Shown here: piece by piece, positions 6,671 through 54,333 of the stretch | Layout of the letters: each line of letters opens with the position of its first letter | How positions within the stretch are numbered: the stretch's first letter is position 1 | Origin: an uncultured bacterium | GTDB taxonomy: Bacteria; Zhuqueibacterota; QNDG01; DSAB01 | Length of the DNA: 64,000 nt | Assembly (NCBI GenBank): GCA_964617625.1 | Contig: CAZTZL010000007.1 | Coordinates: forward strand, 1,278-65,277 | Direction: 5' to 3' | Notes under the pieces: model-generated | The model's database searches: none | The model's input: the letters and a program-made list of their open reading frames with translations, nothing else | Told to the model about the DNA's origin: nothing | Translations under genes and position numbers: made by a program

Positions 6671-6696
6671 AGTGAAAATATGGGATAAAATCCGAT

Positions 6697-13771: not shown

Positions 13772-13831
13772 AATATTGCAGAAGATCAGTTTATGTTATC
13801 ATGAGATTTATACAGGAAAAAGGAGATCGAA

Positions 13832-15598: not shown

Positions 15599-15599
15599 T

Positions 15600-17024
15600 T
15601 CAACGGTATTTCTCCGGAATATTAAATTTTTCCAGAGGAGGAATGGATTTGACAATTGATTTTTTAAATTGCCCTTTTTTATTCTTTTCCATCAAATTCA
15701 TAATGCGAGGTTCGTCATACTTTTCACCGAATTTGTTATAGAGGATTTCCACTTGGGGACGTTTGATGTCGAACATACTGGCTTGAATTACAAGTGCAAT
15801 TTCCTGGGTGTCCAGTTCTACCAGTGTTCCCGGCGGATAAAGTCCGATGATACTGAAAAAATTCTTCAGCAGATCCGGATGAAAATGTTTCCCGGAGAGT
15901 TTCATCATTTCTTCATGTGCCCTTTCAGGACCTCCTTCTTCATAGTAAAACGGTTTTCGTCTCAACTGGTCGTAGTAATCGGAAATCGCTATCATCATGC
16001 TGATGAGGTTTAATTTTTTCCCATACAGTTTTCTAGGATATCCAGTCATATCGTATCGCATGCCATGTTCAAAAGCCGTAATGGCAGGGAGTACGCCGAT
16101 GCCTTCTGTTTCCAAAAGAATCTTTGCGCCTGTAACGTCCTCATCTGCTCTTTTACGTTCTTTTTCATCCGTGAAATAGGCTTCCCATGAAGATTCTTCC
16201 CCTTCTTCTTTACTGCCTTCCGGATCAGCAATTCTACCGATATCGTGTAGAATGGCAGCCATACCGATATCGCTCAGATATTTTTGTTCCAGTCCCAACA
16301 TTTCAGCCTGTAAAAGTGTAAATATTGAAACATTGATGCCGTGTTGAAATACATCTTCATCATGACCGCGCATGGATGTCAGTAAAAGGAGAAGATATTT
16401 ATTTTTCAAGAGATTGGTCATTAATCCTTCAACGATCTGTCTGGCAGAATCCACATTGAGCCGCTGGTTGCCCTTCAGATTTTTAAAGGTTTTTGTTAAA
16501 AATTTAACACTTCCCTTATAATTTTTTTTAACCAAATCATCGATACGATCTTGGGTTATTGGAAGGCTCGATTTCTTTTCCATCAGACCAATCTCTCCGA
16601 TGGCGATATGACGGATGTTGGAATCGTAAAAACGTTGTTTGATTTCTTGTTTTATATCGGCAGTTTTAGGCCTTTTTGTAATAATATTCACAAATTCCAT
16701 GAGCTCGTTTTTTTGAACACCATTCATAAAACTTATTTTCTTGATGCCAAGCGTTTTCAAATGATCGATAAAATTCTGTCTTCTTGAACTTGTTTCAAAG
16801 AGAGGCTCTTTTTCGAATGCGATTTCGTCGCCAATAATACCGATTGTGATTTCTGGTCTATCCATCAAAATATCATTCAAATTGTCACTGAGATGATCAA
16901 TAGCACTCGTTGTGAGTGCATGGTCTTCGCCGTACATGCTCCTTATCTGTATTCCCCTGGCAATATGAGCAATCAATTCATCGATTTTTTCTCTGATTCC
17001 TGATTGTGGCATGAATGACCTCAT
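15600..17024 (-). CDS. HD-GYP domain protein with uncharacterised N-terminal domain
   Basis: QHGINVS, AAILHDIGR, EHGMRYDMTGYP, ISDYYD, PPGTLVEL. Confidence 0.85.
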   Translation of the reverse strand: MRSFMPQSGIREKIDELIAHIARGIQIRSMYGEDHALTTSAIDHLSDNLNDILMDRPEITIGIIGDEIAFEKEPLFETSSRRQNFIDHLKTLGIKKISFMNGVQKNELMEFVNIITKRPKTADIKQEIKQRFYDSNIRHIAIGEIGLMEKKSSLPITQDRIDDLVKKNYKGSVKFLTKTFKNLKGNQRLNVDSARQIVEGLMTNLLKNKYLLLLLTSMRGHDEDVFQHGINVSIFTLLQAEMLGLEQKYLSDIGMAAILHDIGRIADPEGSKEEGEESSWEAYFTDEKERKRADEDVTGAKILLETEGIGVLPAITAFEHGMRYDMTGYPRKLYGKKLNLISMMIAISDYYDQLRRKPFYYEEGGPERAHEEMMKLSGKHFHPDLLKNFFSIIGLYPPGTLVELDTQEIALVIQASMFDIKRPQVEILYNKFGEKYDEPRIMNLMEKNKKGQFKKSIVKSIPPLEKFNIPEKYR

Positions 17025-19320: not shown

Positions 19321-19338
19321 TAGCATATTTCATGCCAG
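19321..19338 (-). promoter_or_regulatory. Sigma54 (-24/-12) promoter of the HEAT/HD-GYP/kinase operon
   Basis: Minus strand CTGGCAT-GAAAT-ATGCT (GG-N10-GC), about 48 bp before ATG 19273. Confidence 0.68.
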
Positions 19339-40143: not shown

Positions 40144-41493
40144 CTATAGATGTCCAACCGGCTGCACTTCTACAAAAGCCTGGCCCGTGACTGATATGCC
40201 CCCCAGTGTTCCCTCAACTGTCCCAAGGCCTTCGTATTTAATCGTGCTTGTTGTGTCAATCACAATCTCCTGGTTTTCTTGTATCATTTTGATGGTAAGG
40301 TCTACCGGCCAGGTCTCTGATTGTAACCGGATGTGGTGCTGCATGAAGTACTGTTGACCGGTGGCCGGGCTTGTCCATATTGTCCCGGGTACCGTTTCAA
40401 TCTCGATTTCATCTATTGCCCATGAATGTACGGCCTTACGTGCGGAGTTGAGTGTCCGTTCACTGTCGTTACGGAAGAGTGTTGCAACCGGGAGGGAACC
40501 AGTCTCGCTTTTAACCTGCAGGACCATAATCGCGGCGTTTTCTTCCGGAAGTTGTATCGCGAAAAAGTCCCAGGACGCGTTGCTAAAAACTTCGCTCGCC
40601 TTTTGATCGTAGGTTTGAACGACGTAATCCATCCACATCGTTCCGTTTGTGCCGCTGCTCAGCAAAACGCTGTCGCGCATAACAGAGAACTGCTCGACGT
40701 CCATCAATGGCAGCGAATAATAGTAAGATCCCTGACAGGACATCGGATCACTGGTGGCATCAAGATAGGCGGGAACCGAGTGGACAGACGATATCATAAT
40801 CTGCTCCCTCTGAGTATCAGTTAAATACTGCGGGAAGAACGATGATGTCCCGTATCCTTGATTGACCACTCCGAACCGGTCGCAAAGCTGTACTTCCACC
40901 TGGAGCCTGACATTTTGTAAGTTGGGAATATCGGCGCTGAGCCGGTAGACGGCATCCGCTGCTCCCATGGTTCCGGAGACGAGTCCCAATGTTATGAGCG
41001 GTCCCGCTTGCAGAGGCGAGTTCAATTCCACGCTCCATGGATCGGGTGTCACGACCATGAGCGGGTCCGCGGCCAGCGTCAAGAAACCTCTGAATATGTA
41101 GGCGCCAAGGGAAGCGCTGTTGAAGCCGACGATGGCCGGAACAATCGGCGCCCGGAACCCGTTATTCGACATCTCGATACGCTGAACAGCGATAAAAAAT
41201 ACACCGATGTCTTCCGGCGCTGCATCATCCACCAGGCTCCCGAAGAAAAACCAGCCGTCGAGGTCGTACTCGAAGTGCTCGGTCGCGAGGAATTCGGCAA
41301 GCTGCTGTGCGCTCTGTGTTTGCGGCAAGTCATGGTCTTGTGTGAAGAACGGGCATCCTGCAGTGGGACCGGGTTGAACGTGTTTATCAGTCAAGATTTC
41401 TTTGATCTTGTTACAACCACTGCCCCAGTAGAGAATGGAAAAAAAGGCTGCTGTACCAACGATTGTAAAAATCATTTTTATTTTTCTGTTCAT
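40144..41493 (-). CDS. AttH/CrtC (lipocalin-like, hydroxyneurosporene synthase family) lipoprotein
   Basis: DGWFFFGSL, YYYSLP, GTMWMD, WDFFAIQL, YEG...VEG..GG..V.G.AFVE; WGSGC lipobox. Confidence 0.62.
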   Translation of the reverse strand: MNRKIKMIFTIVGTAAFFSILYWGSGCNKIKEILTDKHVQPGPTAGCPFFTQDHDLPQTQSAQQLAEFLATEHFEYDLDGWFFFGSLVDDAAPEDIGVFFIAVQRIEMSNNGFRAPIVPAIVGFNSASLGAYIFRGFLTLAADPLMVVTPDPWSVELNSPLQAGPLITLGLVSGTMGAADAVYRLSADIPNLQNVRLQVEVQLCDRFGVVNQGYGTSSFFPQYLTDTQREQIMISSVHSVPAYLDATSDPMSCQGSYYYSLPLMDVEQFSVMRDSVLLSSGTNGTMWMDYVVQTYDQKASEVFSNASWDFFAIQLPEENAAIMVLQVKSETGSLPVATLFRNDSERTLNSARKAVHSWAIDEIEIETVPGTIWTSPATGQQYFMQHHIRLQSETWPVDLTIKMIQENQEIVIDTTSTIKYEGLGTVEGTLGGISVTGQAFVEVQPVGHL

Positions 41494-41613
41494 TAGCATT
41501 ATCTCCATTCTTGAATATTTCCAACGATTTATTTCATCTGGCTCTTAAAGCAAAATGGCCAGAAATTCTCGCTAGATTGTCCCGGGATTTGAAACGGAAT
41601 TTAAACAATGATT

Positions 41614-42594
41614 CTATTTTGTAAGTATCATCTTCCCTTGCTGAATCAGATGATCAGCCTGGAGTTGGTAAATATAGACTCCCGATGATGCCTCAAGTCT
41701 TCTTTCATCTCTTCCGTCCCAAACGACAGTGTGATTGCCTGCGTAAGTGAACATCCCGTTTGCAAGGACGCGCAGCGTGCGTCCCTGTATGTCCAGTATC
41801 TGGAGAGTCACTACTGCGTCGTTCAGGAGAGAATAAGAAATGCTTGTGGATGCATTAAAGGGATTGGGAAAGTTCTGACAGAGTGTGAAACCGCTTGCGC
41901 AAGAACGGGCTGAATTTTCCTTCACACCGGTTGCCGGATAGACCCATGCCAGCGCATTTTCCATTAACTTTTTGCCGTTCACATCATCGCCGCTCCAGTA
42001 ACCGTAGTACCAAGCCTGTAAATCATTGATGTAGACCACACGCCCTGATCCGTACGAGTAGGTTGCTGCGAATACGACCTGGTCGTTCCAAACAATAACG
42101 ACGTGAGCATCGGTTTTCATGACAGAATTTGTTGAGTATCCATCAAAGCTGCACGTTTCCGAAAGACCAGCGCATAGATCGTGACCAGGGTCCACAATCG
42201 TGACACCTGTTCGTTTATCCCATCCGGAACAATTTGAGACAGGATTCGAATTGGCTGTATTGTCAAAAGAACCGGATTGTACAACCCCTTCAAAAATAAC
42301 AAGACCGCCTCCGGCATTAACGAAATCATCCACCACGGCTTCGGGAATGTCCACATCGTTACCGCCCATGAGAATCAGGATGTCATAACCTTCCACATTG
42401 CCCGGAAAGGTGTTGGATTGGGTAACGGCATATCCGAGAGTTGTGAGATGATCCTGCATTTGATCAAGACTCCACGCGGTTGAAGAAGAACCCCATCCTG
42501 TCATCAGAACATTCTGAGCGCTTGTGTTTTGGGAAAACAGGAAGCCCATCAGCACAATGGTTGTAAAAATGATCCGTTTGTATTTTGTGATCAT
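41614..42594 (-). CDS. Secreted protein with GATase-like domain and FlgD/T9SS-type C-terminal tail
   Basis: Signal peptide; YGSGRVVY; QNFPNPFN.ST.ISYSL...V.L.I.DIQG, WDGRD, SGVYIYQL. Confidence 0.72.
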   Translation of the reverse strand: MITKYKRIIFTTIVLMGFLFSQNTSAQNVLMTGWGSSSTAWSLDQMQDHLTTLGYAVTQSNTFPGNVEGYDILILMGGNDVDIPEAVVDDFVNAGGGLVIFEGVVQSGSFDNTANSNPVSNCSGWDKRTGVTIVDPGHDLCAGLSETCSFDGYSTNSVMKTDAHVVIVWNDQVVFAATYSYGSGRVVYINDLQAWYYGYWSGDDVNGKKLMENALAWVYPATGVKENSARSCASGFTLCQNFPNPFNASTSISYSLLNDAVVTLQILDIQGRTLRVLANGMFTYAGNHTVVWDGRDERRLEASSGVYIYQLQADHLIQQGKMILTK

Positions 42595-43276: not shown

Positions 43277-43837
43277 CTATTCTGAAACTGAGAATACAGC
43301 AGCACCCCAGTAATAGCCATCCGCTTCACTTTTTAAAGAAATATATTTTTTTGTCAGTTTTGATTTACTTGATGATGCATATTTTTCAAAACGATTGGAA
43401 ATTGTTTTACGTGTTTTGGCTTCAGAATATACTGCAACAAAACCATCATGAATTGAATTCTCTTTTTTAACCAGTTGTTTTAAGCGCTTTACATCCGCAT
43501 CAATCACGTTATTTATATAGGAAAATTTTTTTACTTCAATCAAATAAAGAGGTTCCTCCTTTTTGTTCCATACAATAATATCCACCCGTCCGGACGCATT
43601 GCTCCTTGGTGGTCGTCCTCTGCAATCTGAGTGAGAAAAATTCAATATATCTCTCACTGTATCTTCTAATGTGACGAATATTTTTTTGTCCCACTTAAAT
43701 AGAGACTGCGCAATTTTGTATTGTATGAATGATTCCGGTGCATAACATATCCAGTATCCATTTGACCATTCCATATATTCTTTTTGAGCATTTTTAGTGC
43801 CTTTAAGAATTGCTTCATATATTTTTTGGTTAGCCAT
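43277..43837 (-). CDS. Hypothetical PD-(D/E)xK nuclease-fold protein
   Basis: PESF, GRVDIIVW, LIEVKK; AGGAGG RBS; AT-rich. Confidence 0.55.
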   Translation of the reverse strand: MANQKIYEAILKGTKNAQKEYMEWSNGYWICYAPESFIQYKIAQSLFKWDKKIFVTLEDTVRDILNFSHSDCRGRPPRSNASGRVDIIVWNKKEEPLYLIEVKKFSYINNVIDADVKRLKQLVKKENSIHDGFVAVYSEAKTRKTISNRFEKYASSSKSKLTKKYISLKSEADGYYWGAAVFSVSE

Positions 43838-44144: not shown

Positions 44145-44426
44145 TTAAATTTTGTATACAGTGATTATTACCATTTTACCAGTTATACTCATTTTAACTA
44201 TTATTCCCATATCAAGACCAGGAATTGATTTGCCGATAATAGTATATTTCCATTCTCCTGTTTTTGTATCCTTTTTTCGACCGATTATTTTACCGTTTAA
44301 AATACATCTTTCAATATCAAATATTGATAAGTCATCATTGTCCATTTCTTCTTCAGCATGTAATGTCATAACAAATTGATTTGTCCGGATTTTTTCACAG
44401 AATAGTTTAAAGATTCGATCAAACAT
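44145..44426 (-). CDS. DUF4258 protein (putative RelE-like toxin)
   Basis: TLHAEEEM..D.L...DI...I..G.II and VIITVY; directly upstream of the YgiT finger. Confidence 0.82.
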   Translation of the reverse strand: MFDRIFKLFCEKIRTNQFVMTLHAEEEMDNDDLSIFDIERCILNGKIIGRKKDTKTGEWKYTIIGKSIPGLDMGIIVKMSITGKMVIITVYKI

Positions 44427-44485: not shown

Positions 44486-46048
44486 TCAGGACTTAAAACG
44501 CTTTGGGTCGATGCCGTAGTTCATAATTTTATATCCGATGATCCGCTCTGTCGAATTCAAAAGTCTCGCGGCTTTGGCCTGGTTGCCTCTGGTCGATTTC
44601 AGTGCGTCCTGAATCAACTCTTTTTCATAAGCGGCCACGGCATCGTCGAGAGAGAGCTGCGTCAAGGTATTGCTGCTTTCGGCGGTCTGCAGTGTCGGCG
44701 GAAGATGATAGCTGTGGATGACATGGTCCTCGCAGATCAAAACGGCCCGCTCGATGCAGTTCTCCAGTTCCCGGACATTTCCCGGCCAGTGATACCGCAT
44801 CAGGGTGTCGATGGCGGGTGTGGAAATGCGTTTCACCGATTTACCGTGCTGTCTTCCGTATTTCAGCATGAAGTGGTCCGCAAGAAGAAGAATGTCTGTT
44901 TTCCGGTCACGAAGAGGGGGGAGGAAGATGGAAAAAACATTCAAACGATAATAAAGGTCTTCGCGGAATGTGCCTTTGCTCATATTTAATTCCAGGTCCG
45001 CATTGGTCGCGGCGATGACCCGTACATCCACACTGATTTTTTCTGTACCGCCAACCCGTTCGAATTGCTGTTCCTGCAATACGCGAAGGAGTTTGACCTG
45101 AGTCAGCGGGCTCAATTCTCCGACTTCATCCAGAAAAATCGTGCCGCCGTCCGCAATTTCGAACCGGCCTTTCTTCTGGCTGACTGCGCCGGTGAATGCG
45201 CCCTTTTCATGTCCGAAAAATTCAGACTCGATTAAATTTTCCGGAATGGCCGCACAGTTTACGGTAATAAACGGTTTTTCGTTTCGGGTTGAATTATAAT
45301 GAATAGCTTCTGCGATCAACTCCTTGCCCGTTCCCGATTCTCCCCGTATCATGACAGTCGTATTGGTACGGGCCACATGGGTTACCTGTTCGTAGACATC
45401 CCGCATCTCGTGGCTGTTTCCGATGATTTTATGAAAGCTGAATTCATCCTGAAGTTTTTGCCGTAACAACACATTTTCATTGATCAATTTTTCTCTCTCG
45501 CCAGTAATGACATGCTCCACACGAATTGGCTGAAGAAGAGCCGAGGCGACAAGAGTCAAAAATTTTAATGTGCTGTCAAAATCCCGCTTCGGGCTGTAAA
45601 CAAGGCTGACAACAAGCACACCGAGAGTTTTATAATCCAGCTTGATTGGAATACCGATAAAACTCTGTTCTTTGTCCAGTTTGGGATCCCAGGAGCTCAT
45701 CCGGTTTAAAAATAACGGTTCTTTGCTGACCTGGGGGACGATGATCGGTTTCCCTGTCTCTGCAATACGGCCTGTCAATCCTTCCCCGAATTTGTATTCC
45801 GTTTTTGCTACATCGACTCGGTATCCGATCGATGCGGCCATGCTGAGAGATTTGCCATCCTCATTGGTAAGGAGAACGGCGCCGGATTGAATATTGTATT
45901 CATTTTGAAGAATTTGAAGCGTTGCCCGGAGTGAATCACGAAGAACGAGATTACGGCTGACAGCCTGATTGATTTCAATCAGAATGGAGAGATTTTTCAT
46001 GGTTTTATCCGGGGACACTTTTACTGATTTCGAATTTGCATTTTTCAT
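44486..46048 (-). CDS. NifA-like sigma54 enhancer-binding protein (GAF-AAA+-HTH)
   Basis: GAF (GEGLTGRIA..GKP), GESGTGKEL, GAFTGA, FLDE, REDLYYRLNV, WPGNVRELEN, GNQAKAARLL. Confidence 0.93.
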   Translation of the reverse strand: MKNANSKSVKVSPDKTMKNLSILIEINQAVSRNLVLRDSLRATLQILQNEYNIQSGAVLLTNEDGKSLSMAASIGYRVDVAKTEYKFGEGLTGRIAETGKPIIVPQVSKEPLFLNRMSSWDPKLDKEQSFIGIPIKLDYKTLGVLVVSLVYSPKRDFDSTLKFLTLVASALLQPIRVEHVITGEREKLINENVLLRQKLQDEFSFHKIIGNSHEMRDVYEQVTHVARTNTTVMIRGESGTGKELIAEAIHYNSTRNEKPFITVNCAAIPENLIESEFFGHEKGAFTGAVSQKKGRFEIADGGTIFLDEVGELSPLTQVKLLRVLQEQQFERVGGTEKISVDVRVIAATNADLELNMSKGTFREDLYYRLNVFSIFLPPLRDRKTDILLLADHFMLKYGRQHGKSVKRISTPAIDTLMRYHWPGNVRELENCIERAVLICEDHVIHSYHLPPTLQTAESSNTLTQLSLDDAVAAYEKELIQDALKSTRGNQAKAARLLNSTERIIGYKIMNYGIDPKRFKS

Positions 46049-46190: not shown

Positions 46191-46231
46191 AAAAAAGGCA
46201 AGCAAATAGTTTCCGCATTTGCTTGCCTTTT
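46191..46231 (-). terminator. Intrinsic terminator of the TBDR/PorV operon
   Basis: AAAAGGCAAGCAAAT...ATTTGCTTGCCTTTT perfect stem; long T-run on the minus strand. Confidence 0.8.
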
Positions 46232-46289
46232 AAATTTCCAGGAAATAAAATTAATTTACATGTCAGTACTTATCGCATGTGAATCGTGC

Positions 46290-47309
46290 TTAGAAGCTCA
46301 AACCCAGATTGAACATCTGTACTTCATTTAACAACCCAAAGTCATGATAACCATAATCAATCATGAGTGTTTTGCCAGCCAGTGTATACTGTACCCCTGC
46401 TCCGAAACACAACCCTTCTTCAGAATCTTTGGAAAAGAGAGATTTATAACCGGCTCTTAAGAAAAACATTTGGTTGAATACATATTCACCGCCCACATTT
46501 AAACTTTCCACATCATCGTTGGGATGAAGCGCATCGATAGCCAAGATCAGATTGCTGTTGCCTATTCCTTTTAATACATCCATTGAAACACCGACCCGGA
46601 ACATCAATGGTAAATCGTATTGATCGGTTTTCAGATTGGCATTGATGCTTGGATTGTTTCCTGCGATACCCTGGTTCACATCTACCTGAGTTAACAGATC
46701 GCGACCGTTCATCCGCATTTTGGTGCCGAAGTTGGAAATGCTCATGCCTATTTTCAGTCCCTGAAACTGGGTAGTAAACACGGTTCCGACATCCAGGGCC
46801 ACTCCGGTTGCAGTGCAGTGATAGATTTTTTGGTAGATATATTTCACATTGAGACCGATGGCGAAACGGTCGGTGAGATTCCGTGCATAGCTAAGTCCAA
46901 AAGCATAATCTCCCGCGCTGAATTTTTCACCGGTGCCATCCGGATATAGCTCCGTTGTTCTTTCCATATCATCCATGCTCAGGAAAGTGGCATTTAATCC
47001 AATCGTACCCATGTTGCCGAGAGGCGCTACGAAAGCAGCATAATTGAATGATACATCAGCGATCCATCGGGTATGGCTGAATAGAGCTTCCGACTGAACC
47101 AATTGCGCCATCCCGGCAGGATTCCAGTACATTGCTGTGATATCATCTGCAATTGAGACAAAGGCACCTCCCATACCGACGGCTCTGGCTCCCACATCGA
47201 TATTCAGAAATGGAGCCGCAGTGGTTCCTGTTTTGGTTACATCTCTCGCAACGAGAGATGTGCTCAGGACCATCATGACTCCCAATAGCAGTGCGATATA
47301 TCGTTTCAT
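46290..47309 (-). CDS. PorV/PorQ-family (UPF0164) outer-membrane beta-barrel
   Basis: FLNIDVGARAVGMGGAF, YWNPAG, D.GTVF, LP..FRVG, C-terminal LGLSF. Confidence 0.82.
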   Translation of the reverse strand: MKRYIALLLGVMMVLSTSLVARDVTKTGTTAAPFLNIDVGARAVGMGGAFVSIADDITAMYWNPAGMAQLVQSEALFSHTRWIADVSFNYAAFVAPLGNMGTIGLNATFLSMDDMERTTELYPDGTGEKFSAGDYAFGLSYARNLTDRFAIGLNVKYIYQKIYHCTATGVALDVGTVFTTQFQGLKIGMSISNFGTKMRMNGRDLLTQVDVNQGIAGNNPSINANLKTDQYDLPLMFRVGVSMDVLKGIGNSNLILAIDALHPNDDVESLNVGGEYVFNQMFFLRAGYKSLFSKDSEEGLCFGAGVQYTLAGKTLMIDYGYHDFGLLNEVQMFNLGLSF

Positions 47310-47364
47310 GTTTGTGCTCCTTTATGAAGAATGATTAATGAATTCCTTTCATCAAATCATGCTG

Positions 47365-50300
47365 CTATTTAATCACAGCGAATTTTCCGATTTTATTGCC
47401 GACACCCGGTGCGTCGATGTGATAAATATAAACACCGTATGCGATATCCAGATCGTCTTTGGTCCGCAGATCCCATACGGCTCCTCCGTCGGCGAGATCT
47501 TCGGTTTCATGTTCTATCGTATCAACCAATTGTCCCCGCATGTTGAAGATTCGAATCGTGCATTTCGAAGGCAAATGGGTAAAGTGAATGACTCGCGGAC
47601 CACGACCCGTTGCATACGGATTTTCCCCTTCCCATGAGTTGGTCACAATGTAGGGGTTGGGTACCACATTAATTCGATTCATCTGGTTTTTCGCCAGGGT
47701 TTTATCGATTGATTTCCCGTGCATTGTAAATTCGAAAACATCATTGGCAAGGAATGGATTGTTGAAAGTGAGAATTAATGTGTCCCCGGGAGCCGGACTG
47801 ACGTTTGCTGTGTCGGTGGACAGTCTTAAAAGCGATAACATCCAGCCAGCGATGTTGACACCTTCTTCGTCCAGTGAATCGGAAAGGAACATGATTTCGT
47901 CGGTTTTACTCCCTGCTGTTTTAGTTGTAAATTTTCCGGCATCCTCTGGTGTCGCGACATCCTGTTCCCTAAAAGCGAATTTGATTTTTTGGTTGTTCGC
48001 TTTGGTATCGAGAATGGTAAAGTTGACCGGGATAGCCGGTAAAGGATCCTGATGATTGCTTTTTCTGAACCAGCTGGTGGAAGTATCGATTCCGACTTCA
48101 CCCATGATGAGCATGTAATCGCTCGATTCGAGATATCTTTCTTTACCGCTCTGGTTGAAGGCTTGCACTCTGGGTGAATCGATATTCGCATGGTTCCAGC
48201 CGGAAACGCTCGCATCCGGATTGTAGTCCAATTGGGTGATTCCCAGGTCATCAAATGTCAGTTTGAATCCGTTAATGACAGGAACTTCGTCTCCCAAATG
48301 GAACATCGTGCTTCGGTTGATGAGTGTATCGATATTGTTTTCATCGGTTACATTCAACAACGAGAAGTTTTTGGTTGCAGGATAATCCCGGTTTCCGATG
48401 GCAGTATCTTGAAAAACGATGTGGTATGTGGCATCAATTACTGAGTCCGCATCGACAACCGTCACATTTACCAATCCGTCAGCAGTGCCACTCCGATGCA
48501 CCACAGAGTCTTTATCAGCTTTCACATACCCTGCCGAAGGTGCTTCCGGTTTGATCATTACGACATTTTTACCCAATCTGTATTTTTCGGTGACCGGATC
48601 TCTCGATATGGATTTATTGCACTCTGAAGGAGCGATACCGTTAACGAGATCACCGTGATCGTATGCTGTGACCGCATAGAAATAGGTAAATCCGTTCAGA
48701 GCGGTTGTATCTATCCAGGTATGGACCAGGCCGCTGTTGGTGCCGTAATTCCAGTGCACACCGCGTACATTGAGAGGGCATACACCTGAGTATTCGTTAT
48801 CCAAGTCAAACTGTGCAAGGGGTTTCCGGTACTGAGTGGGGGTGCCGTTATAATCGGTCAGTATTGGCATATCGCCCCATTGATCGTCCGTGGACCGGTA
48901 GATGGCGTATCCCTCAAAATCTTTGCCCGTAATTGGATCGACCGATTCTTCGGCAAAGCTGTCCCAGATTAGTGTCACACGGTTGTCGCCGGCGATGGCT
49001 CTGACAGTGGGAGCGCTGGGAGCTTTGGAAAAATTATAATTTTCGTGATAGGCCCTGGAAAACCAGAATTTGTTTTCAATCAGATCGGCTTCATCCCAGC
49101 CGCACATCAGTGCCATTGAGAAACGTTCTGTTTGATCGGGTTTGAGAGGGAAATATCCGGAACTGAAAAACAATTCGATATTGTCGTTTTCGAGGTGATC
49201 ATCAAAGACACCGGGCAGTGCATTATTCCAGACAAGTTCATCTTCCCAGTGGGGCATATCCGGCCACCGATAAAGTGTAAATCCTGTCAGGCCGAGCATG
49301 TCGCTTTCATCGATGTCCGTTTTATCAAAATGTGGTTCACCGGCCGTCATTAAACCGTCGCCTTCTCCAATATCCGGTCCGGGATAGCCGGGATCACTTG
49401 GACCCAGACCATCTGCACCGACATCGTCAAACGTCGGATTCCAGTCTCCATCGTTATCAATACCGTCGTCCCGTCTTTCATCGATCAGAATATTATCGTC
49501 CCATGTTTCCGGATCAGCGAAATAATCAACGTATTTGTTTCCTTTTCCCGTAGTTTCATCAATGTAAAGATATTTTTGAATCGGCGGATCACCAATCAGC
49601 GACCCGTTGTTTTCATCGATAAGTCCATTGAGATTATTATCGACGAGATCATTCGGAGTTTCTTGAATGACTTTACCTGCATAGTATTTTATTTTCTGAT
49701 CCTGATATCGAACAATCAAGGTATCGCTTCCAAGAGCGTTCAATGTGTCCTGAAGCGTCACTACTTTTCTTTTATAGGTATTGTAATTTATAAGCACGAT
49801 TTTCGAATTTAAATTCAATGTAGAGGTTGCCTCTAACATTGCCTCTGAAAGTTCGGGTCCGGTTCCCTCTGAAGCGTCATAGTCGTTATCGATTCCATCG
49901 TAGGGGTTTCCCGGGCTTTCCAGAAAAGCCGCTCCAAAATATCCAACCGGGTCGGGTCCCCAATCCGGGGCCTTGTCATCGTCGTAATCGTAAAGATAAG
50001 CCAGGCCTTCCTCTTTGAGGTACTGGCCCGCGTCGTCTTCACCTTCACTTGCGTAATTGTTCTCTGTTTCTCCGACATTGTTCCCGATTTTAAAGGCATA
50101 GACCAATTTATTATGTTCGTGTGTACCGATGTTTTTGATATCCATCAGTGTGAATAATCCGTCATCCACCAGTGCATTGTTCCACTGAAAACCACGGCAG
50201 TACATGCGCAGCCCCAGACCTCTCCGCAGAGAGTCGGTACTGTCAGGATAGAAAGCAAACTCGTTGTTGGCATAATCATCCGAAACGAAGTAACTTTCTT

Positions 50301-50883
50301 CATCGGCATTTTGTTTGTCCCGTCCGAAATAACCGTTCCACGAACCTGCCCAGCCGCCCGGAGAATAGATGGGATTTTCCGGGTCTTTGATATCCGGCCA
50401 GTAAGCCGGCCACGCCCAGGGCCACTTGTTCATGGCGACTTTTGGTTGATCACTTTCTGTTTCCGGAGGATGGGGATTGTTAAAATTGGGAAGCGGAAGA
50501 AAGGTTCTCCATTTTCCATCCGGGCCGATATCGCCGGTAGAATATGCACTGGTATTGTTGGTTCCAGGACCCCTGACTTCGCTGACTACATGTTGAGTCT
50601 GATTGTTGATGTCGATGACTTCGGATCCCACGAACGTATTCCCGTCCAACATATAAATGTGTGCAGAATTAATGGGCCATTCCCCTCCGATATCTGGCGG
50701 TCTATTGTTAACACCCCAGGTTCCGTCGTTGTAAAATGTGGTCCGGAACAGGTTTCCTTCGTGCAGGCCACTGGCGTTGTTAGCAAAATCACCGTGCAGA
50801 CCTTCCATCTGTGCATACAGACAGGCTGAAGAGAGGCCGCTTATGATCGTTATTAAAAATAATATTCGGAGTGTCTTTTTCAT
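47365..50883 (-). CDS. 1172-aa secreted hypothetical protein with Asp-rich repeats, FN3-like region and T9SS-like C-terminal tail
   Basis: Signal peptide; DGIDND repeats; DFEGY.IYRS and YFYAVTAYD; INVVPNPY...IHFTHLPSKCTIRIFN..G.LV...YGVYIYHI. Confidence 0.75.
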   Translation of the reverse strand: MKKTLRILFLITIISGLSSACLYAQMEGLHGDFANNASGLHEGNLFRTTFYNDGTWGVNNRPPDIGGEWPINSAHIYMLDGNTFVGSEVIDINNQTQHVVSEVRGPGTNNTSAYSTGDIGPDGKWRTFLPLPNFNNPHPPETESDQPKVAMNKWPWAWPAYWPDIKDPENPIYSPGGWAGSWNGYFGRDKQNADEESYFVSDDYANNEFAFYPDSTDSLRRGLGLRMYCRGFQWNNALVDDGLFTLMDIKNIGTHEHNKLVYAFKIGNNVGETENNYASEGEDDAGQYLKEEGLAYLYDYDDDKAPDWGPDPVGYFGAAFLESPGNPYDGIDNDYDASEGTGPELSEAMLEATSTLNLNSKIVLINYNTYKRKVVTLQDTLNALGSDTLIVRYQDQKIKYYAGKVIQETPNDLVDNNLNGLIDENNGSLIGDPPIQKYLYIDETTGKGNKYVDYFADPETWDDNILIDERRDDGIDNDGDWNPTFDDVGADGLGPSDPGYPGPDIGEGDGLMTAGEPHFDKTDIDESDMLGLTGFTLYRWPDMPHWEDELVWNNALPGVFDDHLENDNIELFFSSGYFPLKPDQTERFSMALMCGWDEADLIENKFWFSRAYHENYNFSKAPSAPTVRAIAGDNRVTLIWDSFAEESVDPITGKDFEGYAIYRSTDDQWGDMPILTDYNGTPTQYRKPLAQFDLDNEYSGVCPLNVRGVHWNYGTNSGLVHTWIDTTALNGFTYFYAVTAYDHGDLVNGIAPSECNKSISRDPVTEKYRLGKNVVMIKPEAPSAGYVKADKDSVVHRSGTADGLVNVTVVDADSVIDATYHIVFQDTAIGNRDYPATKNFSLLNVTDENNIDTLINRSTMFHLGDEVPVINGFKLTFDDLGITQLDYNPDASVSGWNHANIDSPRVQAFNQSGKERYLESSDYMLIMGEVGIDTSTSWFRKSNHQDPLPAIPVNFTILDTKANNQKIKFAFREQDVATPEDAGKFTTKTAGSKTDEIMFLSDSLDEEGVNIAGWMLSLLRLSTDTANVSPAPGDTLILTFNNPFLANDVFEFTMHGKSIDKTLAKNQMNRINVVPNPYIVTNSWEGENPYATGRGPRVIHFTHLPSKCTIRIFNMRGQLVDTIEHETEDLADGGAVWDLRTKDDLDIAYGVYIYHIDAPGVGNKIGKFAVIK

Positions 50884-50903
50884 TTTGATGCTCTCCTCTA
50901 TTT

Positions 50904-53900
50904 TTAGAAACCAAATGACATGCCGACCTGAACCTGACGCGGTGCTGCATGCCAGTCGGGATGATTAATATAATCTTCTACTGTACCTACACGTTTTGCA
51001 TTGTAGCCTAATTTTACCGGATCAATCGTTGTGGTATAATCGGGACTGCCTGTATCGGTGTAAACGAATGTTTCATCCAACTGGTTAAAGAGATTGTAGA
51101 CATTAAGGAATATGTTTATTTCAGCGGTTCCCAAACTAATCCGTCTGTTGATGTAGAGATCGACACTTTTGCGGTCTGTCATTCGGGCACTGTTTGTAAC
51201 CAAACCGACCAAAGCTGTCTCTCCTGTGGTTCCTCCTGTCGCAAAAGTCGGTGTATAGGGCCTGCCGCTCCAGTACATACCGATGAGAGAAACCGTCCAG
51301 TTTTTTAATTGATAAATAATTGATCCATTGAATGTGTGTCTTTGATCCCATCCCATCGGAATCAGTGCAAGCCGGGGTTCGTTTTTATTTTGAATGGCAG
51401 TAAAAGCATCCCTCGGGTTGGAATAGGTTCCTTCAGCAATCTGATAAGTGTAATCCAGCCTTGCAGAGAAATTTTGCGACTGCCGTTTTTCCAATTTTAA
51501 TGTGATACCGCGAACATTGGAATAGTCTCTGTTTTCATACTGGGTGTATTTCAAGCTCGGATTGACGGTTTCGACAAGCGGACTTGTACCGACCCAATTC
51601 CGAACATCCCGATAAAATATGGTAATATCTATGCCAATATTCTCTGCCAACTGCTGCTGCAAACCAATTTCGTACATGATGGTACGCTGCGGTTTTAAGT
51701 CCGCATTGCCGAAAATGTAATTGGTGCCGCCAGCAGGCAACACTTTGAAATCCGGATTTTCATAAAGGTAGCGAAAATCGGGAACCTGGAAGAAGTGGCC
51801 GTAAGAGAAGTGAATGACGCCTCTGTCTGTGATTGGATAAGCGATTCCAAGTCTCGGGCTGAGCGCCATTTTAGGATCTACTTTTTTTTGCATGAAGCTG
51901 CGTCTTTCATCGGGAGTATACTCTTCAAATCCGCGCTTCCATTCATCCACCTGTGGTGCCGAGAAGGTGTCCGGCGGTTCAACCCAGTTTTTATAGATAT
52001 GTTCATCCTTTAACGGTGAATAGATACTTGGGTCGGTCGGATCTGCCTGTACATAACCGTTTGCATCAAAATAATCAAATCGCAGACCGATGTTGATATT
52101 CATTTCTTTCAGTTCAATTTTGTCCTGAATGTATGCGGAGAATTCTTTTGGTTTATTTATGTAATCACTTCGGTAATAGCTGGATGGATCGGGAATGGAA
52201 GGCTGGAACGGCGTGATTTCCTGTCCGTTCGCATCCAGTTTTGGACGGATTGTAAAACTGTGGAGCTCCAGTTCGTAGAGTCTCAGTTCGACTCCTGTTT
52301 TGATCTGATTGTATTTTTGTATCTGGCTTGTCAGATCCCATTTGCCTACCCAGTAGGAGGTGTTTCGTTTGAAATGCTCCATCTCTTGTCCGGTCTTATA
52401 AAAACTGCTTGGGGCCGGCTGGGAATTCGAATCGGGGTGGACATACCCCAGAGGACTGGTTGGATCGATCACCCATTCGTACTGTCTTTTCTGCTCTTTA
52501 GCCAGTACGAATTGAACGGAATCCGCAGGGATGGAAATGTCCAGGTAGTAATCCGGAAGTTCAGGCTCCGCAACTGTATCTTTGAGAACATGCACAAGAT
52601 ATTTAGGTGCGGCAAGCGGATCTTCGTAAACGTAGCGTTTATATTCTGTCGTGAATCGGTTAACCCGGAATTCATAGAATGTCGAAGGGGAGAGTATGTG
52701 ATTCAGAGAAAAAATATGTGTGAAACTTTCACCTAATTCCGTGGGTAGTCCGCCGGGAGTGTACTTGAAATTGTGGCCGCTGAACGTATTCCGGGAATCC
52801 ATATCGTTGATGTAGTTCGCACGATCGTTCTGCCATTTACTCCAGAAAATACCGTAGTTCAGTTTGATATTGGAACTGAGCTTATAAGTTAATTTGGCTT
52901 GTGTTGTGAATCTCTCGGTGGGTGACAGCGGTACAAGAGAACTGTCACCGGGTGTTCCCATAGGCGTGTACCATTCCCTGCCGTACAGAGCTCCTTCTTG
53001 AGAATAATATCGGCCGTTCAGGAAAAAACTCAGCTTATCATTTGTCAGAGGTACAGGACCGCTCAAGCTGAGTTCGCCATTGTAAGTCGGGTTGAATTTG
53101 GCTAAGGGATTTTCCGATTCACCGACAGCAACTGTCTGATTCGCCGCATTCTTAGTGATATCGACCTTTTTTAGAACGTCGAAAACACTGCTATGGCCCA
53201 TATAATCACCAACGTATCCCGAGATTTCACCGGTATAACGCTGGCCGCCTTCTTTTGTAATGATGTTTACGATACCTGACATGGCTTGACCATATTCAGC
53301 ATTAAATGTTCCGCTGACGACCTGGAGTTCCTGAACTGCCGAGTTTTCCACTGATACGCCCATTCCTCCGGCATAAACATCCGTTGTGGCGACACCATCG
53401 ACCCAGTAAGCGACTTCTCCTGTTCTTCCGCCTCGGATGTGCAGATTATTACCATCTCGAATGATCCCGGCCTGTATTTGCAATACATCGTTAACACTTT
53501 GCACCGGCAATTTGGCGATTTCATCTGCTCCTACCGAAGAAAGAGCCGATGTCATGTCCGCACGAACGAGCGGCCTTTCGGCAACCACCGTGACAGTTTC
53601 ATTTGCTTCAAGAACCGTCTGGCTCATGTTGGCATTAATGGTTGTTGTGAGGTCAATTGAGACGCGAACATTTGAGATTAAACTATTTTTGTAGCCCATC
53701 ATGGTGAACCTTAAACTGTAAATACCGGGAGGGACATTCATTATTGTATAGCTGCCGTCCAGTCCCGTCGCGGCTCCCATTGAAGTTCCCTCGAGAACCA
53801 CATTGGTTCCGGGTAAAGCTTCTTTTGTGTTCATGTCAACTACTTTCCCGGTTAGTTTTCCAGTAGTCCCTGCGATGAGCAGGTTCCCTGTGAAAAGAAA

Positions 53901-53951
53901 AATAGTGTAAAACAGGATGAGTGATACCACAATGTAGGTGTGCTTTTTCAT
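50904..53951 (-). CDS. TonB-dependent receptor with N-terminal carboxypeptidase-regulatory-like domain
   Basis: GTTGKLTGKV.D....EALPG.NV, plug motif HIRGGR..E..Y.VDG, GTFNAEYG.AMSG.VNI.TKEG, C-terminal Phe; start ATG 53951. Confidence 0.9.
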   Translation of the reverse strand: MKKHTYIVVSLILFYTIFLFTGNLLIAGTTGKLTGKVVDMNTKEALPGTNVVLEGTSMGAATGLDGSYTIMNVPPGIYSLRFTMMGYKNSLISNVRVSIDLTTTINANMSQTVLEANETVTVVAERPLVRADMTSALSSVGADEIAKLPVQSVNDVLQIQAGIIRDGNNLHIRGGRTGEVAYWVDGVATTDVYAGGMGVSVENSAVQELQVVSGTFNAEYGQAMSGIVNIITKEGGQRYTGEISGYVGDYMGHSSVFDVLKKVDITKNAANQTVAVGESENPLAKFNPTYNGELSLSGPVPLTNDKLSFFLNGRYYSQEGALYGREWYTPMGTPGDSSLVPLSPTERFTTQAKLTYKLSSNIKLNYGIFWSKWQNDRANYINDMDSRNTFSGHNFKYTPGGLPTELGESFTHIFSLNHILSPSTFYEFRVNRFTTEYKRYVYEDPLAAPKYLVHVLKDTVAEPELPDYYLDISIPADSVQFVLAKEQKRQYEWVIDPTSPLGYVHPDSNSQPAPSSFYKTGQEMEHFKRNTSYWVGKWDLTSQIQKYNQIKTGVELRLYELELHSFTIRPKLDANGQEITPFQPSIPDPSSYYRSDYINKPKEFSAYIQDKIELKEMNINIGLRFDYFDANGYVQADPTDPSIYSPLKDEHIYKNWVEPPDTFSAPQVDEWKRGFEEYTPDERRSFMQKKVDPKMALSPRLGIAYPITDRGVIHFSYGHFFQVPDFRYLYENPDFKVLPAGGTNYIFGNADLKPQRTIMYEIGLQQQLAENIGIDITIFYRDVRNWVGTSPLVETVNPSLKYTQYENRDYSNVRGITLKLEKRQSQNFSARLDYTYQIAEGTYSNPRDAFTAIQNKNEPRLALIPMGWDQRHTFNGSIIYQLKNWTVSLIGMYWSGRPYTPTFATGGTTGETALVGLVTNSARMTDRKSVDLYINRRISLGTAEINIFLNVYNLFNQLDETFVYTDTGSPDYTTTIDPVKLGYNAKRVGTVEDYINHPDWHAAPRQVQVGMSFGF

Positions 53952-54158
53952 ATTGCTCACTCCTCAGTTATTATTGGTGATAAATTGTGGGAATAAATAT
54001 ATGTACGCATAAGATTAGCCGAAAAATTTCAAACCAGTTTAAATATTTTTATCTACAAAGTCAAGTTTTTTTTATTTCCCAAAAAGAAATTTATCCGCAT
54101 CATTCAAATATTAAATGGAAACCATGACCGATGTCAAATCGAAAGCAATGTAAAATGC

Positions 54159-54207
54159 TTGACAAAATGTAAAAAATTTATATAATATAATGTTGACAAT
54201 CGTGTCA
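54159..54207 (+). promoter_or_regulatory. Sigma70 promoter plus inverted repeat upstream of rbsK
   Basis: TTGACA-N16-TATAAT (54159-54186), then TGACA-N4-TGTCA (54194-54207). Confidence 0.55.
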
Positions 54208-54333
54208 GGACCAGTTTATTGGTTCGGACAGCAGTATTCCATATTCCAAATGTACTAACAGATAATGATACCGGCGGCAGGAATATACAGAAGTGAAAAA
54301 TGGTTTTACTTTTTCTCTACTTAATTTATTGAG

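Follow-up and report, generated by a model that had tools for sequence, protein, structure and literature searches.

A three-gene block on the minus strand of a 64,000-nucleotide stretch of DNA (the window, meaning the whole stretch that was analysed) encodes a TonB-dependent transporter (TBDT), a large secreted protein of an unnamed family, here termed BIG, and an outer-membrane barrel of the PorV/PorQ family. On balance, the triad is probably the central outer-membrane part of a nutrient uptake system that does without SusD and most likely takes up oligosaccharides; in this system BIG would be carried and anchored by its private PorQ-like barrel. The genes and the signals that border them are the following.

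53952..54333, minus strand: intergenic region upstream of the triad, common to a divergent PfkB kinase gene, with sigma-70-like hexamer pairs
50904..53951, minus strand: TonB-dependent transporter (Pfam PF13715, PF07715 and PF00593; partial PF25183)
47365..50883, minus strand: BIG, secreted protein of 1172 aa; its signal peptide ends ...LYA|Q
46290..47309, minus strand: dedicated PorV/PorQ-family outer-membrane barrel, 339 aa, with a signal peptide (NF033709)
46193..46231, minus strand: intrinsic-terminator-like hairpin closing the three-gene unit, a 16-bp stem followed by a T run

ORF calls on the window give three co-oriented minus-strand reading frames (50904..53960, 47365..50883 and 46290..47309), with gaps of 20 nt between TBDT and BIG and 55 nt between BIG and the barrel. 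The hairpin at 46231..46193 lies 58 nt past the barrel stop codon; it is the sole strong one on the minus strand, and nothing comparable was found between the triad genes. The triad is a single transcription-unit-like block; the close spacing (20–55 bp) and the common terminator had both been described in the first-pass annotation and are confirmed here. Candidate promoters, found by consensus match, are the sigma-70-like hexamer pairs at 54137..54108 and 54064..54036 upstream of the TBDT gene; a sigma-54 –24/–12 element was not found in the upstream region 53952..54333. Short metatranscriptome contigs map to the TBDT and BIG genes, with sparse coverage and none on the barrel gene. For the TBDT, ATG 53951 (1015 aa) is a better start than the alternative GTG 53960 (1018 aa), because the ATG has a GAGGAG Shine-Dalgarno sequence 8 nt upstream, which the GTG overlaps; the start chosen earlier, at the same ATG, is thereby upheld.

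The TBDT starts with a signal peptide and has a carboxypeptidase-regulatory-like extension at the N-terminus (residues 36–123), a TonB-box-like ETVTVVAER motif, a plug (residues 135–229) and a barrel that reaches a C-terminal Phe; the Pfam domains are CarboxypepD_reg, Plug and the TonB_dep_Rec barrel. The first-pass annotation had compared it with SusC, which normally pairs with a SusD lipoprotein. Membership of the SusC family is ruled out, as the match to the SusC/RagA model TIGR04056 reaches 69.8 bits where the cutoff is 368 and is confined to residues 35–239, at the N-terminus. A profile of the TBDT family finds CirA, 9gbc and the SusC homologue 8aa4 in the PDB, through extension and plug only. 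Judged by its sequence, the transporter is one with a SusC-type N-terminal extension and a barrel outside the SusC family.

The barrel of the TBDT also gives a partial match to PF25183 (58 bits, cutoff 30), and an export role therefore stays conceivable. Myxococcus Oar, a TBDT whose N-terminus is carboxypeptidase-regulatory-like, is required for secretion of the protease PopC (PMC6434023). By this precedent the triad TBDT might work outward, exporting BIG to the barrel without needing a type IX secretion system (T9SS), whose core genes were not seen within the 64-kb window. We regard this as most improbable: the BIG tail is homologous to T9SS tails, the barrel comes from a T9SS carrier family, and related loci are of import type, with regulators, hydrolases and inner-membrane sugar symporters. 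In addition, a 22-strand barrel closed by a plug would hardly be expected to pass a folded multi-domain protein of 1,100 residues.

BIG gave no match to Pfam and NCBIfam models even at E ≤ 10, so a SusD or CAZyme domain is ruled out. Domain calls agree with the earlier statement that the triad has neither a SusD nor a recognisable CAZyme, and neither is encoded by the two flanking genes. A PDB sequence search with BIG also returned no match. More than 3,000 homologues are listed, the named ones nearly all as 'hypothetical', and clustering of the family at 50% identity (E ≤ 1e-30) gives 1,101 clusters or more. The following regions are predicted within the protein.

49024..50808, minus strand: residues 26–620, large conserved beta-(super)sandwich domain (AlphaFold2)
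49288..49497, minus strand: residues 463–532, Asp-rich and nearly invariant, DERRDDGIDNDGDW...GEGDG...EPHFDKTDIDESD (invariant columns in alignments A1 and A3)
48544..49023, minus strand: residues ~621–780, fibronectin-III-like (FN3) domain (secondary structure and FN3-array matches, full-length model)
47704..48543, minus strand: residues ~781–1060, Ig-like beta-sandwich domains (full-length model)
47368..47703, minus strand: residues 1061–1172, divergent T9SS-like C-terminal domain (VVPNPY...GRGPR...CTIRIF...YGVYIYH...GKFAVIK)

The N-terminal ~600 residues are modelled as a confident fold (AlphaFold2 with 98 sequences, pLDDT 83, pTM 0.85), and invariant Trp, Asp and Glu residues are numerous in residues 26–620. 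A Foldseek search of this model against the PDB gave nothing at E ≤ 0.001. The best weak matches (TM ≤ 0.32, E ≥ 1e-3) are to proteins with supersandwich domains: a GH15-like dextran dextrinase, GH116, the GH94/GH149/GH161 phosphorylases and YidC P1. As the matches are this weak, the presence of such a fold in carbohydrate-active enzymes is taken only as a fold-class hint of carbohydrate binding. Asp-rich motifs of the DGIDNDxD type recur near residues 329–336 and 415–424. With the stretch at 463–532, to which the full-length model assigns a low pLDDT, they resemble loops that bind Ca2+; calcium binding is suggested by the motif alone. The FN3-like block (conservation 0.60) is the most conserved apart from the C-terminal domain. 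Residues ~781–1060, modelled all-beta with pLDDT ~80, form the most variable part of the family (block conservation 0.31–0.45 across 69 homologues) and are a candidate substrate-specific or spacer part.

The T9SS tail attributed to BIG in the first-pass annotation stands as a matter of homology, by profile-profile comparison, but falls short of the type-A family threshold, TIGR04183 scoring 18.7 bits, under its cutoff of 23. With hhalign, BIG tails and the canonical tails of neighbouring proteins align at 94% probability, and cross-scores are 14–15 bits against self-scores of 93–149. The best PDB matches to the tail profile are the tails of PorZ (5m11, E 0.009) and PorU (6za2, E 0.02), and among 28 tails of the BIG family, the PorZ C-terminus was matched in 23, that of PorU in 18 and the generic type-A model in 12. 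With a block conservation of 0.55–0.66, the tail ranks with the best-conserved segments of BIG. Comparison of profiles thus makes clear a homology to T9SS tails, yet within a highly conserved subclass of its own, and the nearest relatives appear to be the retained, barrel-bound tails of PorZ and PorU.

The third gene product had been called PorV-like. The PorV/PorQ family model NF033709 bears this out at 224 bits (cutoff 90), and the family profile matches Flavobacterium johnsoniae PorV (6h3i_F) at E 1.6e-24. The barrel falls under every equivalog cutoff (PorQ 117 vs 220 bits, PorV2 108 vs 325, PorV 95 vs 250), PorQ being the top-scoring model. The earlier proposal that it is a private tether for BIG fits both this PorQ affinity and the PorZ/PorU-like, uncleaved type of tail. 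Cognate PorV-like barrels have been proposed to shield tails from cleavage, and carriers stay on type-B adhesins (PMC10202324; PMC10994853).

The barrel could instead be a private shuttle only. In that case it would take the very large BIG over from the translocon, PorU would cleave the BIG tail, BIG would be LPS-attached or released as is usual for type-A cargo, and the TBDT would be merely co-regulated, with no stable three-protein complex. PorV-family barrels do work as translocon carriers (PMC10994853), the BIG tail is homologous to type-A tails, and one BIG homologue (P0060) carries the NCBI name T9SS type A sorting domain protein. We nevertheless consider a shuttle-only role unlikely, as the tail is nearer to uncleaved PorZ/PorU tails than to generic ones, and a discarded signal is not expected to be so constant or to come with its own barrel at every paralogous locus. 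Strict adjacency to the TBDT and co-divergence with it would also be unexplained.

This adjacency is seen across a wide range of bacteria. Among 80 related loci, 45 complete triads have the order TBDT-BIG-barrel on one strand, and nearly all the remaining loci with sufficient flank share it; two are TBDT-barrel-BIG. The complete triads are drawn from KSB1, Calditrichota, Ignavibacteriota, Marinimicrobia, Kryptonium, Rhodothermales and Balneolaceae, and the triad occurs in Stahlbacteria too. The recurrence suggested earlier for Ignavibacteria, Calditrichota and KSB1 is therefore real and extends well beyond them. Gene order far exceeds chance. The triad genes have diverged in step, with pairwise-distance correlations of 0.75–0.85, to which species phylogeny may contribute. 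Tandem or multiple triads are found per contig or genome (L009, L021, L044, L050 and L080), and several locus tags come from single MAGs. The triad is inherited as a unit across many phyla of the FCB group (Fibrobacterota-Chlorobiota-Bacteroidota and relatives). A literature search found no paper describing it, as the first-pass annotation had supposed.

Related loci are built like polysaccharide utilisation loci: besides the triad they hold a regulator, T9SS-tailed glycoside hydrolases and binders, and a symporter of the inner membrane. Immediately downstream of the barrel gene are genes for canonical Por_Secre_tail proteins (31 of 50), CBM20 (15 of 50) and CBM48 (8 of 50), as well as GH10, GH13, GH16, GH9, GH66, GH94 and GHL10; tailed proteins of these loci carry CBM20/CBM48, GH10, GH13, GH43, GH53, GH16, GH9 or GH66. 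LacI regulators are present in 15 loci and Na/solute symporters in seven, and XylR regulators are also found. The glycan types include xylan, starch and galactan: the closest related locus, L001, is arabinoxylan-type (GH43-CBM6, TBDT, BIG, barrel, GH10), L006 and L027 are starch-type, and L081 has CBM20 and GH53 proteins. The nutrient-uptake role first suggested for the triad fits this setting, and for the window triad it is transferred from relatives at 31–55% identity.

The window triad itself is flanked by a divergent PfkB kinase gene and a sigma-54 activator, and domain calls on its neighbours, a sugar kinase, an FAD oxidase, an aldolase and the activator, gave no adjacent CAZyme, LacI-type regulator, symporter or tailed cargo; a canonical type-A cargo protein is encoded elsewhere in the window, at 41614..42594. 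With such neighbours, and with amidase or M23 peptidase genes following the barrel in a few related loci, the window triad might serve the uptake of peptides, of a metal chelate or of a cofactor, and BIG might be a capture protein like BtuG or TbpB. This is very unlikely in our view, since the large majority of informative related loci, the closest among them, are carbohydrate loci.

The tailed cargo that flanks the triad in 62 of 80 loci suggests another role for BIG. Together with the barrel it might form a module for attachment or scaffolding specific to the locus, analogous to PorZ-PorQ, by which the neighbouring tailed enzymes and binders are organised or anchored around the TBDT. The BIG tail is most PorZ-like and the barrel most PorQ-like, PorZ (5m11) is the top Foldseek match of full-length BIG (E 1.6e-5), and docking might take place at the recurring Asp-rich motifs. 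However, the PorZ match has a TM of 0.09–0.13 and probably reflects the tail and generic beta domains only, the window triad is without adjacent tailed cargo, and binding of BIG to glycolipid or to other proteins is hypothetical. Such a module, with BIG as a utilisome scaffold that itself neither binds substrate nor caps the TBDT, is distinctly unlikely.

In the uptake system favoured here, Sec would take BIG across the inner membrane and the T9SS across the outer one. Its C-terminal domain would be recognised by the neighbouring barrel rather than by the general carrier PorV, the barrel serving as a private carrier at the translocon. It is proposed that the domain stays uncleaved and that the barrel therefore anchors BIG permanently in the membrane, as PorQ anchors PorZ and SprF-type carriers anchor SprB. 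Anchored BIG would then be positioned beside or over the TBDT. The N-terminal supersandwich, the Asp-rich loops and the FN3 domain would make up a constant docking or capture part, and the variable Ig-like region would provide reach or specificity. Oligosaccharides freed by neighbouring T9SS-anchored enzymes would pass to the TBDT and be imported on TonB energy.

Several known systems share parts of this arrangement. In the PorQ-PorZ and PorV-PorU pairs of the Porphyromonas gingivalis T9SS attachment complex, a large secreted protein is retained on a PorV-family barrel through an uncleaved C-terminal domain, as is proposed for the triad. PorQ and PorZ, however, are single-copy housekeeping T9SS parts, unlinked to a TBDT and outside nutrient loci; beyond the tail, sequence similarity of BIG to PorZ is undetectable, and the barrel does not reach the equivalog cutoff for PorQ. 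In SprB-SprF/PorP-type pairs the cargo gene adjoins that of its own carrier barrel, and the carrier stays on and anchors the cargo at the surface, which again is proposed here. Those pairs have type-B tails and PorP/SprF-family barrels and function in adhesion or gliding, whereas the triad has a type-A-related tail, a PorV/PorQ-family barrel and a TBDT. The barrel and the BIG tail also match, far under cutoff, NCBIfam PorV2 (NF052325, 108 vs 325 bits) and a T9SS-dependent M6-like inactivated metalloprotease (NF052323, 13 vs 600 bits), which, to judge from their names, presumably describe a large tailed protein and the PorV paralogue that goes with it; BIG differs in having no M6-like domain.

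Outside glycan uptake, BtuB-BtuG, XusA-XusB and TbpA-TbpB share with the triad the concept of a TBDT whose ligand is captured by a surface protein encoded alongside it. Partners of the BtuG/XusB/TbpB type are lipoprotein lids that use lipoprotein pathways, and we know of none that has a tail of T9SS type or is anchored by a barrel of its own. The xylan locus Rmar_1067-1073 of Rhodothermus marinus has the same layout as L001: LacI, a tailed GH43-CBM6, a tailed Xyn10A, a TonB-dependent receptor and then three hypothetical proteins, the first and third tailed (PMC6987092). Rmar_1071 and Rmar_1072 are candidate BIG and barrel genes by printed gene order alone; the paper leaves them hypothetical and attributes uptake to a separate SusC/SusD pair in the cluster (PMC6987092).

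With the SusC/SusD (RagA/RagB) pairs of polysaccharide utilisation loci in Bacteroidota the triad shares a TBDT with a carboxypeptidase-regulatory-like extension before TonB box and plug, a surface-exposed partner encoded by the next gene, a setting among genes for glycoside hydrolases, binders, a regulator and a sugar transporter of the inner membrane, and the presence of multiple paralogous loci in one genome. It differs in a TBDT that falls outside the SusC/RagA model, in a partner that is an all-beta protein of 1,100–1,300 aa with a T9SS-like tail and no conserved lipobox instead of a SusD-fold lipoprotein, and in an obligatory third gene, that of the barrel, without a Sus counterpart. Because elsewhere it is sited within sugar-polymer utilisation loci, the triad has the look of a so far undescribed counterpart that takes the place of the classical SusC/SusD pair. 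If so, T9SS export and a PorQ-like anchor stand in for the surface lipoprotein SusD.

The triad is a set of three co-oriented minus-strand genes whose products are a TonB-dependent transporter, a 1172-aa middle protein of an unnamed family, termed BIG here, and a predicted outer-membrane barrel of the PorV/PorQ type.

Genes of the triad and the hairpin that follows them
50904..53960, minus strand: transporter gene, 1018 aa with GTG as first codon; ATG 53951 likelier as the start
47365..50883, minus strand: BIG gene, 1172 aa
46290..47309, minus strand: barrel gene, 339 aa
46231..46193, minus strand: terminator-like hairpin, a 16-bp stem and a T run, directly after the third gene

The open reading frames confirm the co-orientation and the gaps of 20 and 55 nt read in the first-pass annotation, whose choice of ATG 53951 as the transporter start is also favoured, GAGGAG sitting 8 nt 5′ of it. 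The shared terminator proposed there is present as the strong hairpin after the barrel gene, the sole strong minus-strand terminator-like hairpin of the triad region. All three products display a signal-peptide-like N-terminus. A divergent PfkB sugar kinase gene lies 5′ of the triad.

A scan with one genome per species yielded 80 related loci (numbered with the prefix L), in lineages that include KSB1, Calditrichota, Ignavibacteriota (including Melioribacter), Neomarinimicrobiota, Kryptonium, Stahlbacteria, Rhodothermales and Balneolaceae. The recurrence in Ignavibacteria, Calditrichota and KSB1 given in the first-pass annotation is thereby verified. With the window's proteins as tblastn queries, almost all loci whose flanks are long enough show transporter, BIG and barrel on the same strand. 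Clustering of all flanking open reading frames recovers BIG from 79 loci, the transporter from 70 and the barrel from 68, and pairwise distances of the three proteins correlate with r = 0.75–0.85 over 45 complete triads. The triad is an operon-like unit, an inherited three-gene module. Two loci have the permuted order transporter, barrel, BIG, and the module tolerates a swap of its last two genes. The permuted loci, L007 and L040, come from Ignavibacteriales/Melioribacter-labelled MAGs and are preceded by a ∼970-aa CBM9 tailed protein. Paralogous triads, tandem or multiple, do occur (L009, L021, L044, L050 and L080, with several locus tags from single MAGs), but no further one was found inside the window.

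The DNA of 46200..54100 is almost complete in several salt-marsh metagenome runs and partly present in marsh, freshwater and marine sediment runs, and the source organism is therefore taken to be a marsh-sediment bacterium. Of the BIG relatives listed, those nearest carry a KSB1 or Calditrichaeota label. A homologue is also found in a cultured isolate, Rhodothermaceae bacterium RA (ARA95175.1). Complete genomes that bear the triad include OZ245886.1 and OZ241742.1. Metatranscriptomes of salt-marsh or rhizosphere samples contain a few short contigs, 95–99% identical, on the transporter and BIG genes; they were set aside as operon evidence, the contigs being too few and too short to speak for co-transcription.

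The transporter has matches above cutoff to both the plug (PF07715, 34.8 bits) and the barrel domain (PF00593, 98.4 bits) and belongs to the TonB-dependent transporter superfamily. A carboxypeptidase-regulatory-like extension is present, PF13715 and PF13620 matching residues 36–123; the plug spans 135–229, and a TonB-box-like motif, ETVTVVAER, lies between the two. The SusC/RagA model TIGR04056 scores 69.8 bits, against a cutoff of 368.25, and covers only residues 35–239, the N-terminal extension and plug. The transporter family profile aligns with the SusC homologue 8aa4 (residues 15–235) and finds PDB transporters via extension and plug only. The protein falls outside the SusC/RagA family but keeps a SusC-like N-terminal architecture. 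The Oar-type barrel model PF25183 gives 58.2 bits (cutoff 30), confined to profile positions 594–740 of 838 and overlapping the stronger PF00593 match. Oar-like export through the transporter, for which Oar is the precedent (PMC6434023), is regarded as highly improbable.

The third gene product, called a PorV-like barrel in the first-pass annotation, matches the PorV/PorQ family model NF033709 far above its cutoff (224.2 bits over residues 29–339; cutoff 90). The barrel family profile also matches Flavobacterium johnsoniae PorV (6h3i_F, E 1.6e-24). Scores against the equivalog models are 117.4 bits for PorQ (NF033711, cutoff 220), 108.3 for PorV2 (NF052325, cutoff 325) and 94.9 for PorV (NF033710, cutoff 250), PorQ being the best though below cutoff. 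The barrel is a clear member of the PorV/PorQ family, in a distinct paralogue group.

The tail of BIG had been described as a type IX secretion system (T9SS) tail. This label fails at the family threshold because TIGR04183 (T9SS type A) gives 18.7 bits, below the cutoff of 23; PF18962 gives 13.4 bits (cutoff 27). The homology itself stands by profile–profile comparison, where hhalign of the BIG-tail profile against canonical tails of neighbouring cargo in related loci gives 94% probability and E 1e-7. An HMM of BIG tails scores a median of 149 bits on its own group and 15 on the other, and the corresponding values for a canonical cargo-tail HMM are 93 and 14; the two groups are sharply separate, yet homologous. 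The best PDB matches of the BIG-tail profile are the tails of PorZ (5m11, E 0.009) and PorU (6za2, E 0.02). Among 28 BIG tails, 23 match the PorZ C-terminus (best E 4e-9), 18 match PorU and 12 the generic type-A model. The BIG tail is PorZ/PorU-like and unusually conserved.

The tails of PorZ and PorU in the T9SS are uncleaved and stay bound to PorQ and PorV. It has been suggested that cognate PorV-like barrels shield uncleaved tails (review, PMC10202324), and structural work presents PorV-type barrels as carriers able to stay on their cargo (PMC10994853). An alternative is that the barrel is a private shuttle and the BIG tail is cleaved; beside a tail of PorZ/PorU type this is considered unlikely. 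Somewhat less likely again is that BIG and barrel form a PorZ/PorQ-like scaffold for neighbouring cargo. The reading preferred here is one of retention, with BIG held on its own barrel.

No T9SS core genes (SprA/Sov, PorK/L/M/N) are found within the 64-kb window. A 326-aa protein at 41614..42594 (minus strand) passes TIGR04183 with 29.7 bits (cutoff 23), and this type-A cargo therefore gives indirect support for a T9SS in the organism. It adjoins a 454-aa protein with a lipocalin-like domain (40144..41508, minus strand).

BIG itself has no sequence relatives in Pfam or NCBIfam at E<=10, nor in the PDB by phmmer and profile searches; a match to EspB in sequence searches was rejected as spurious. 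More than 3,000 homologues were detected by a word-indexed search. The best 120 of these are all full-length, with 47–75% identity, and their named entries are 'hypothetical', save P0060, named as a T9SS type A sorting domain protein. In an exhaustive profile search, 1,101 clusters (50% identity) reach E<=1e-30; at E<=1e-10 the number is 3,857.

The AlphaFold2 model of full-length BIG is all-beta and multi-domain, with a moderate pLDDT of 70. It was discarded for fold identification, Foldseek returning FN3 arrays and low-TM matches (TM <=0.17) that were uninterpretable. For residues 26–620, a model built on 98 sequences gives a confident fold (pLDDT 83, pTM 0.85). No PDB structure matches this segment at E<=0.001; its best matches, all weak (TM <=0.32), are GH15-like, GH116, GH94, GH149 and GH161 enzymes and the YidC periplasmic domain. 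Beta-supersandwich domains occur in these proteins, and the model of residues 26–620 is on that ground tentatively assigned to a fold class characteristic of proteins that handle carbohydrates. The catalytic domains of the structural neighbours, including the (alpha/alpha)6 domain, are absent from the segment. The N-domain is ∼50% identical between loci aimed at different glycans, and this identity, together with the lack of a catalytic (alpha/alpha)6 domain, makes an enzyme unlikely. After the N-domain come an Asp-rich stretch, an FN3-like domain, a variable Ig-like region and the C-terminal domain. The Asp-rich stretch is nearly invariant and has DGIDNDxD motifs that look Ca2+-binding, judged by the motif alone. 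Conservation over 69 divergent homologues is highest in residues 151–350, 451–750 and the C-terminal domain, 1051–1172, and lowest in 351–450 and 801–1050.

In the related loci, the next commonest neighbours after the triad genes, present in 62 loci, on the same strand and on both sides, form a mixed set with the canonical T9SS type-A tail in common. Among 50 genes directly after the barrel, 31 have Por_Secre_tail, further indirect support for a T9SS, 15 have CBM20, eight CBM48 and four pullulanase X25; single cases are GH10, GH13, GH16, GH9, GH66, GH94 and GHL10. The locus closest to the window, L001 (transporter 55%, BIG 50% and barrel 63% identical), has the order GH127-like (tailed), LamG (tailed), GH43-CBM6 (tailed), transporter, BIG, barrel, GH10 (tailed), and is an arabinoxylan-type locus. 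CBM20 and GH13 mark two others, L006 and L027, as starch-type, and L081 has CBM20 and GH53 proteins. Regulators of LacI or XylR type occur in 15 loci and Na/solute symporters in seven. The related loci are polysaccharide utilisation loci (PULs) in all but the SusC/SusD pair. In 26 of the 80 loci the gene immediately upstream of the transporter encodes a SurA/PpiC-type peptidyl-prolyl isomerase of ∼570 aa (e.g. L035:3443-5140, L048:3185-4885 and L081:5671-7104), perhaps a periplasmic chaperone devoted to the transporter or to BIG; the gene is absent beside the window's triad. In 13 loci a GDSL/SGNH hydrolase fused to TPR repeats (cluster c6; e.g. L004:2428-4686, L033:15437-17326) recurs close to the triad.

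Linked CAZymes and a regulator are present in most related loci, unlike the window's copy, where neither was found among the adjoining genes. No SusD-type Pfam match is found in BIG even at E<=10, or in the barrel or flanking genes at stricter cut-offs, and the Pfam searches of triad and flanking genes agree with the earlier observation of no SusD and no recognisable CAZyme. The window's triad is an 'orphan' copy without carbohydrate-locus neighbours. A non-glycan substrate for this orphan is judged improbable beside the gene content of its relatives.

Other features of the window
44486..46048, minus strand: GAF-AAA+-HTH sigma-54 activator, downstream of the triad and past the terminator
44145..44426, minus strand: small DUF4258 protein, toxin-like family
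43277..43837, minus strand: 186-aa protein, weak PD-(D/E)XK and HSDR_N-type matches
13755..13770 and 19322..19337, minus strand: two good sigma-54 −24/−12 matches (TGGCAT-N5-ATGCA/T)
4874..7908, plus strand: sodium/solute symporter, then a cellobiose 2-epimerase-like gene; not adjoining the triad
60707..63631, plus strand: 974-aa Reg_prop (eight repeats)/Y_Y_Y protein, some 7 kb away from the triad

Sigma-54 control of the triad by the downstream activator was rejected, there being no −24/−12 element upstream of the transporter gene; nor is the activator a conserved neighbour among related loci, and it was dropped as a triad regulator. The two sigma-54 matches lie upstream of an operon (11839..19273) encoding histidine kinases, an HD-domain protein and a 750-aa protein without a family match, and are possible targets of the activator. 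The DUF4258 and 186-aa proteins, between the activator and the next genes, may be a toxin–antitoxin or mobile remnant. The symporter and epimerase-like genes are a small sugar-salvage pair. Reg_prop/Y_Y_Y is the periplasmic sensor architecture of hybrid two-component regulators that govern Bacteroides polysaccharide loci; this sensor and an FAD/Fe-S oxidase are the window's other two open reading frames of ∼1,000 aa.

The triad is probably the outer-membrane core of a nutrient uptake locus. By a mechanism held with slightly more belief than doubt, BIG would be exported by the T9SS with its own barrel as carrier, keep its tail and stay anchored to that barrel, and serve as the capture or lid component at the transporter, SusD's role in Bacteroidia; neighbouring T9SS-anchored enzymes would supply the oligosaccharides. 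The triad is classed as a likely TonB-dependent uptake locus for glycans, its T9SS-anchored partner system being undescribed. In the first-pass interpretation, the synteny is verified, and SusD-independent uptake by a tethered protein is partly supported. More tentatively, FCB-group phyla outside Bacteroidia (Ignavibacteriota, Calditrichota, KSB1, Marinimicrobia, Rhodothermota/Balneolota and others) might possess a second, unrecognised PUL architecture, in which the surface capture or lid protein of the transporter is, in place of a SusD lipoprotein, a T9SS-exported protein of the very large BIG family with its uncleaved tail permanently on a locus-encoded PorQ-like barrel, and the three-protein core gathers T9SS-anchored enzymes.

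SusC/SusD pairs are the accepted marker of glycan uptake loci, and genome and metagenome surveys predict polysaccharide degradation from them. If the reading is true, such surveys would overlook a core that does without SusD and relies on another partner, because the pair is the marker used. Sediments, marshes, hot springs and the dark ocean abound in the lineages that would be affected: KSB1, Calditrichota, Ignavibacteriota, Marinimicrobia and Rhodothermales. With more than 1,000 clusters at 50% identity and no Pfam, NCBIfam or PDB relative, the BIG family is a large blank at the centre of these loci. The triad would also join TonB-dependent nutrient import and type IX secretion with carrier barrels, fields usually kept apart, and would bring into nutrient uptake the case of a tail retained on its cognate barrel. 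Cultured carriers in which the reading can be tested exist: Rhodothermaceae strain RA and, probably, Rhodothermus marinus, for which a xylan locus of this layout is in print.

A canonical SusC/SusD PUL has an adjacent SusD/RagB lipoprotein gene, and the window's triad differs in being without one. The full-text literature search found no published description of the triad. The 'SusCDE' of Melioribacter roseus (Mros0759-0761) is accompanied by GH13 (PMC3534657); no link from it to the BIG family could be drawn, as the neighbour at the M. roseus-labelled locus L040 is a tailed CBM9 protein, not GH13. In the xylan locus of R. marinus, genes for LacI, GH43-CBM6 and Xyn10A are followed by the TonB-dependent receptor Rmar_1070, and then by a tailed hypothetical (1071), a hypothetical (1072) and a tailed hypothetical (1073) (PMC6987092). 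The best 120 entries of a Rhodothermus-seeded search include none labelled R. marinus, so the link between Rmar_1071 and BIG rests on the printed layout. That layout, by which the match is made, is the same as in the triad loci and passed unrecognised there (PMC6987092).
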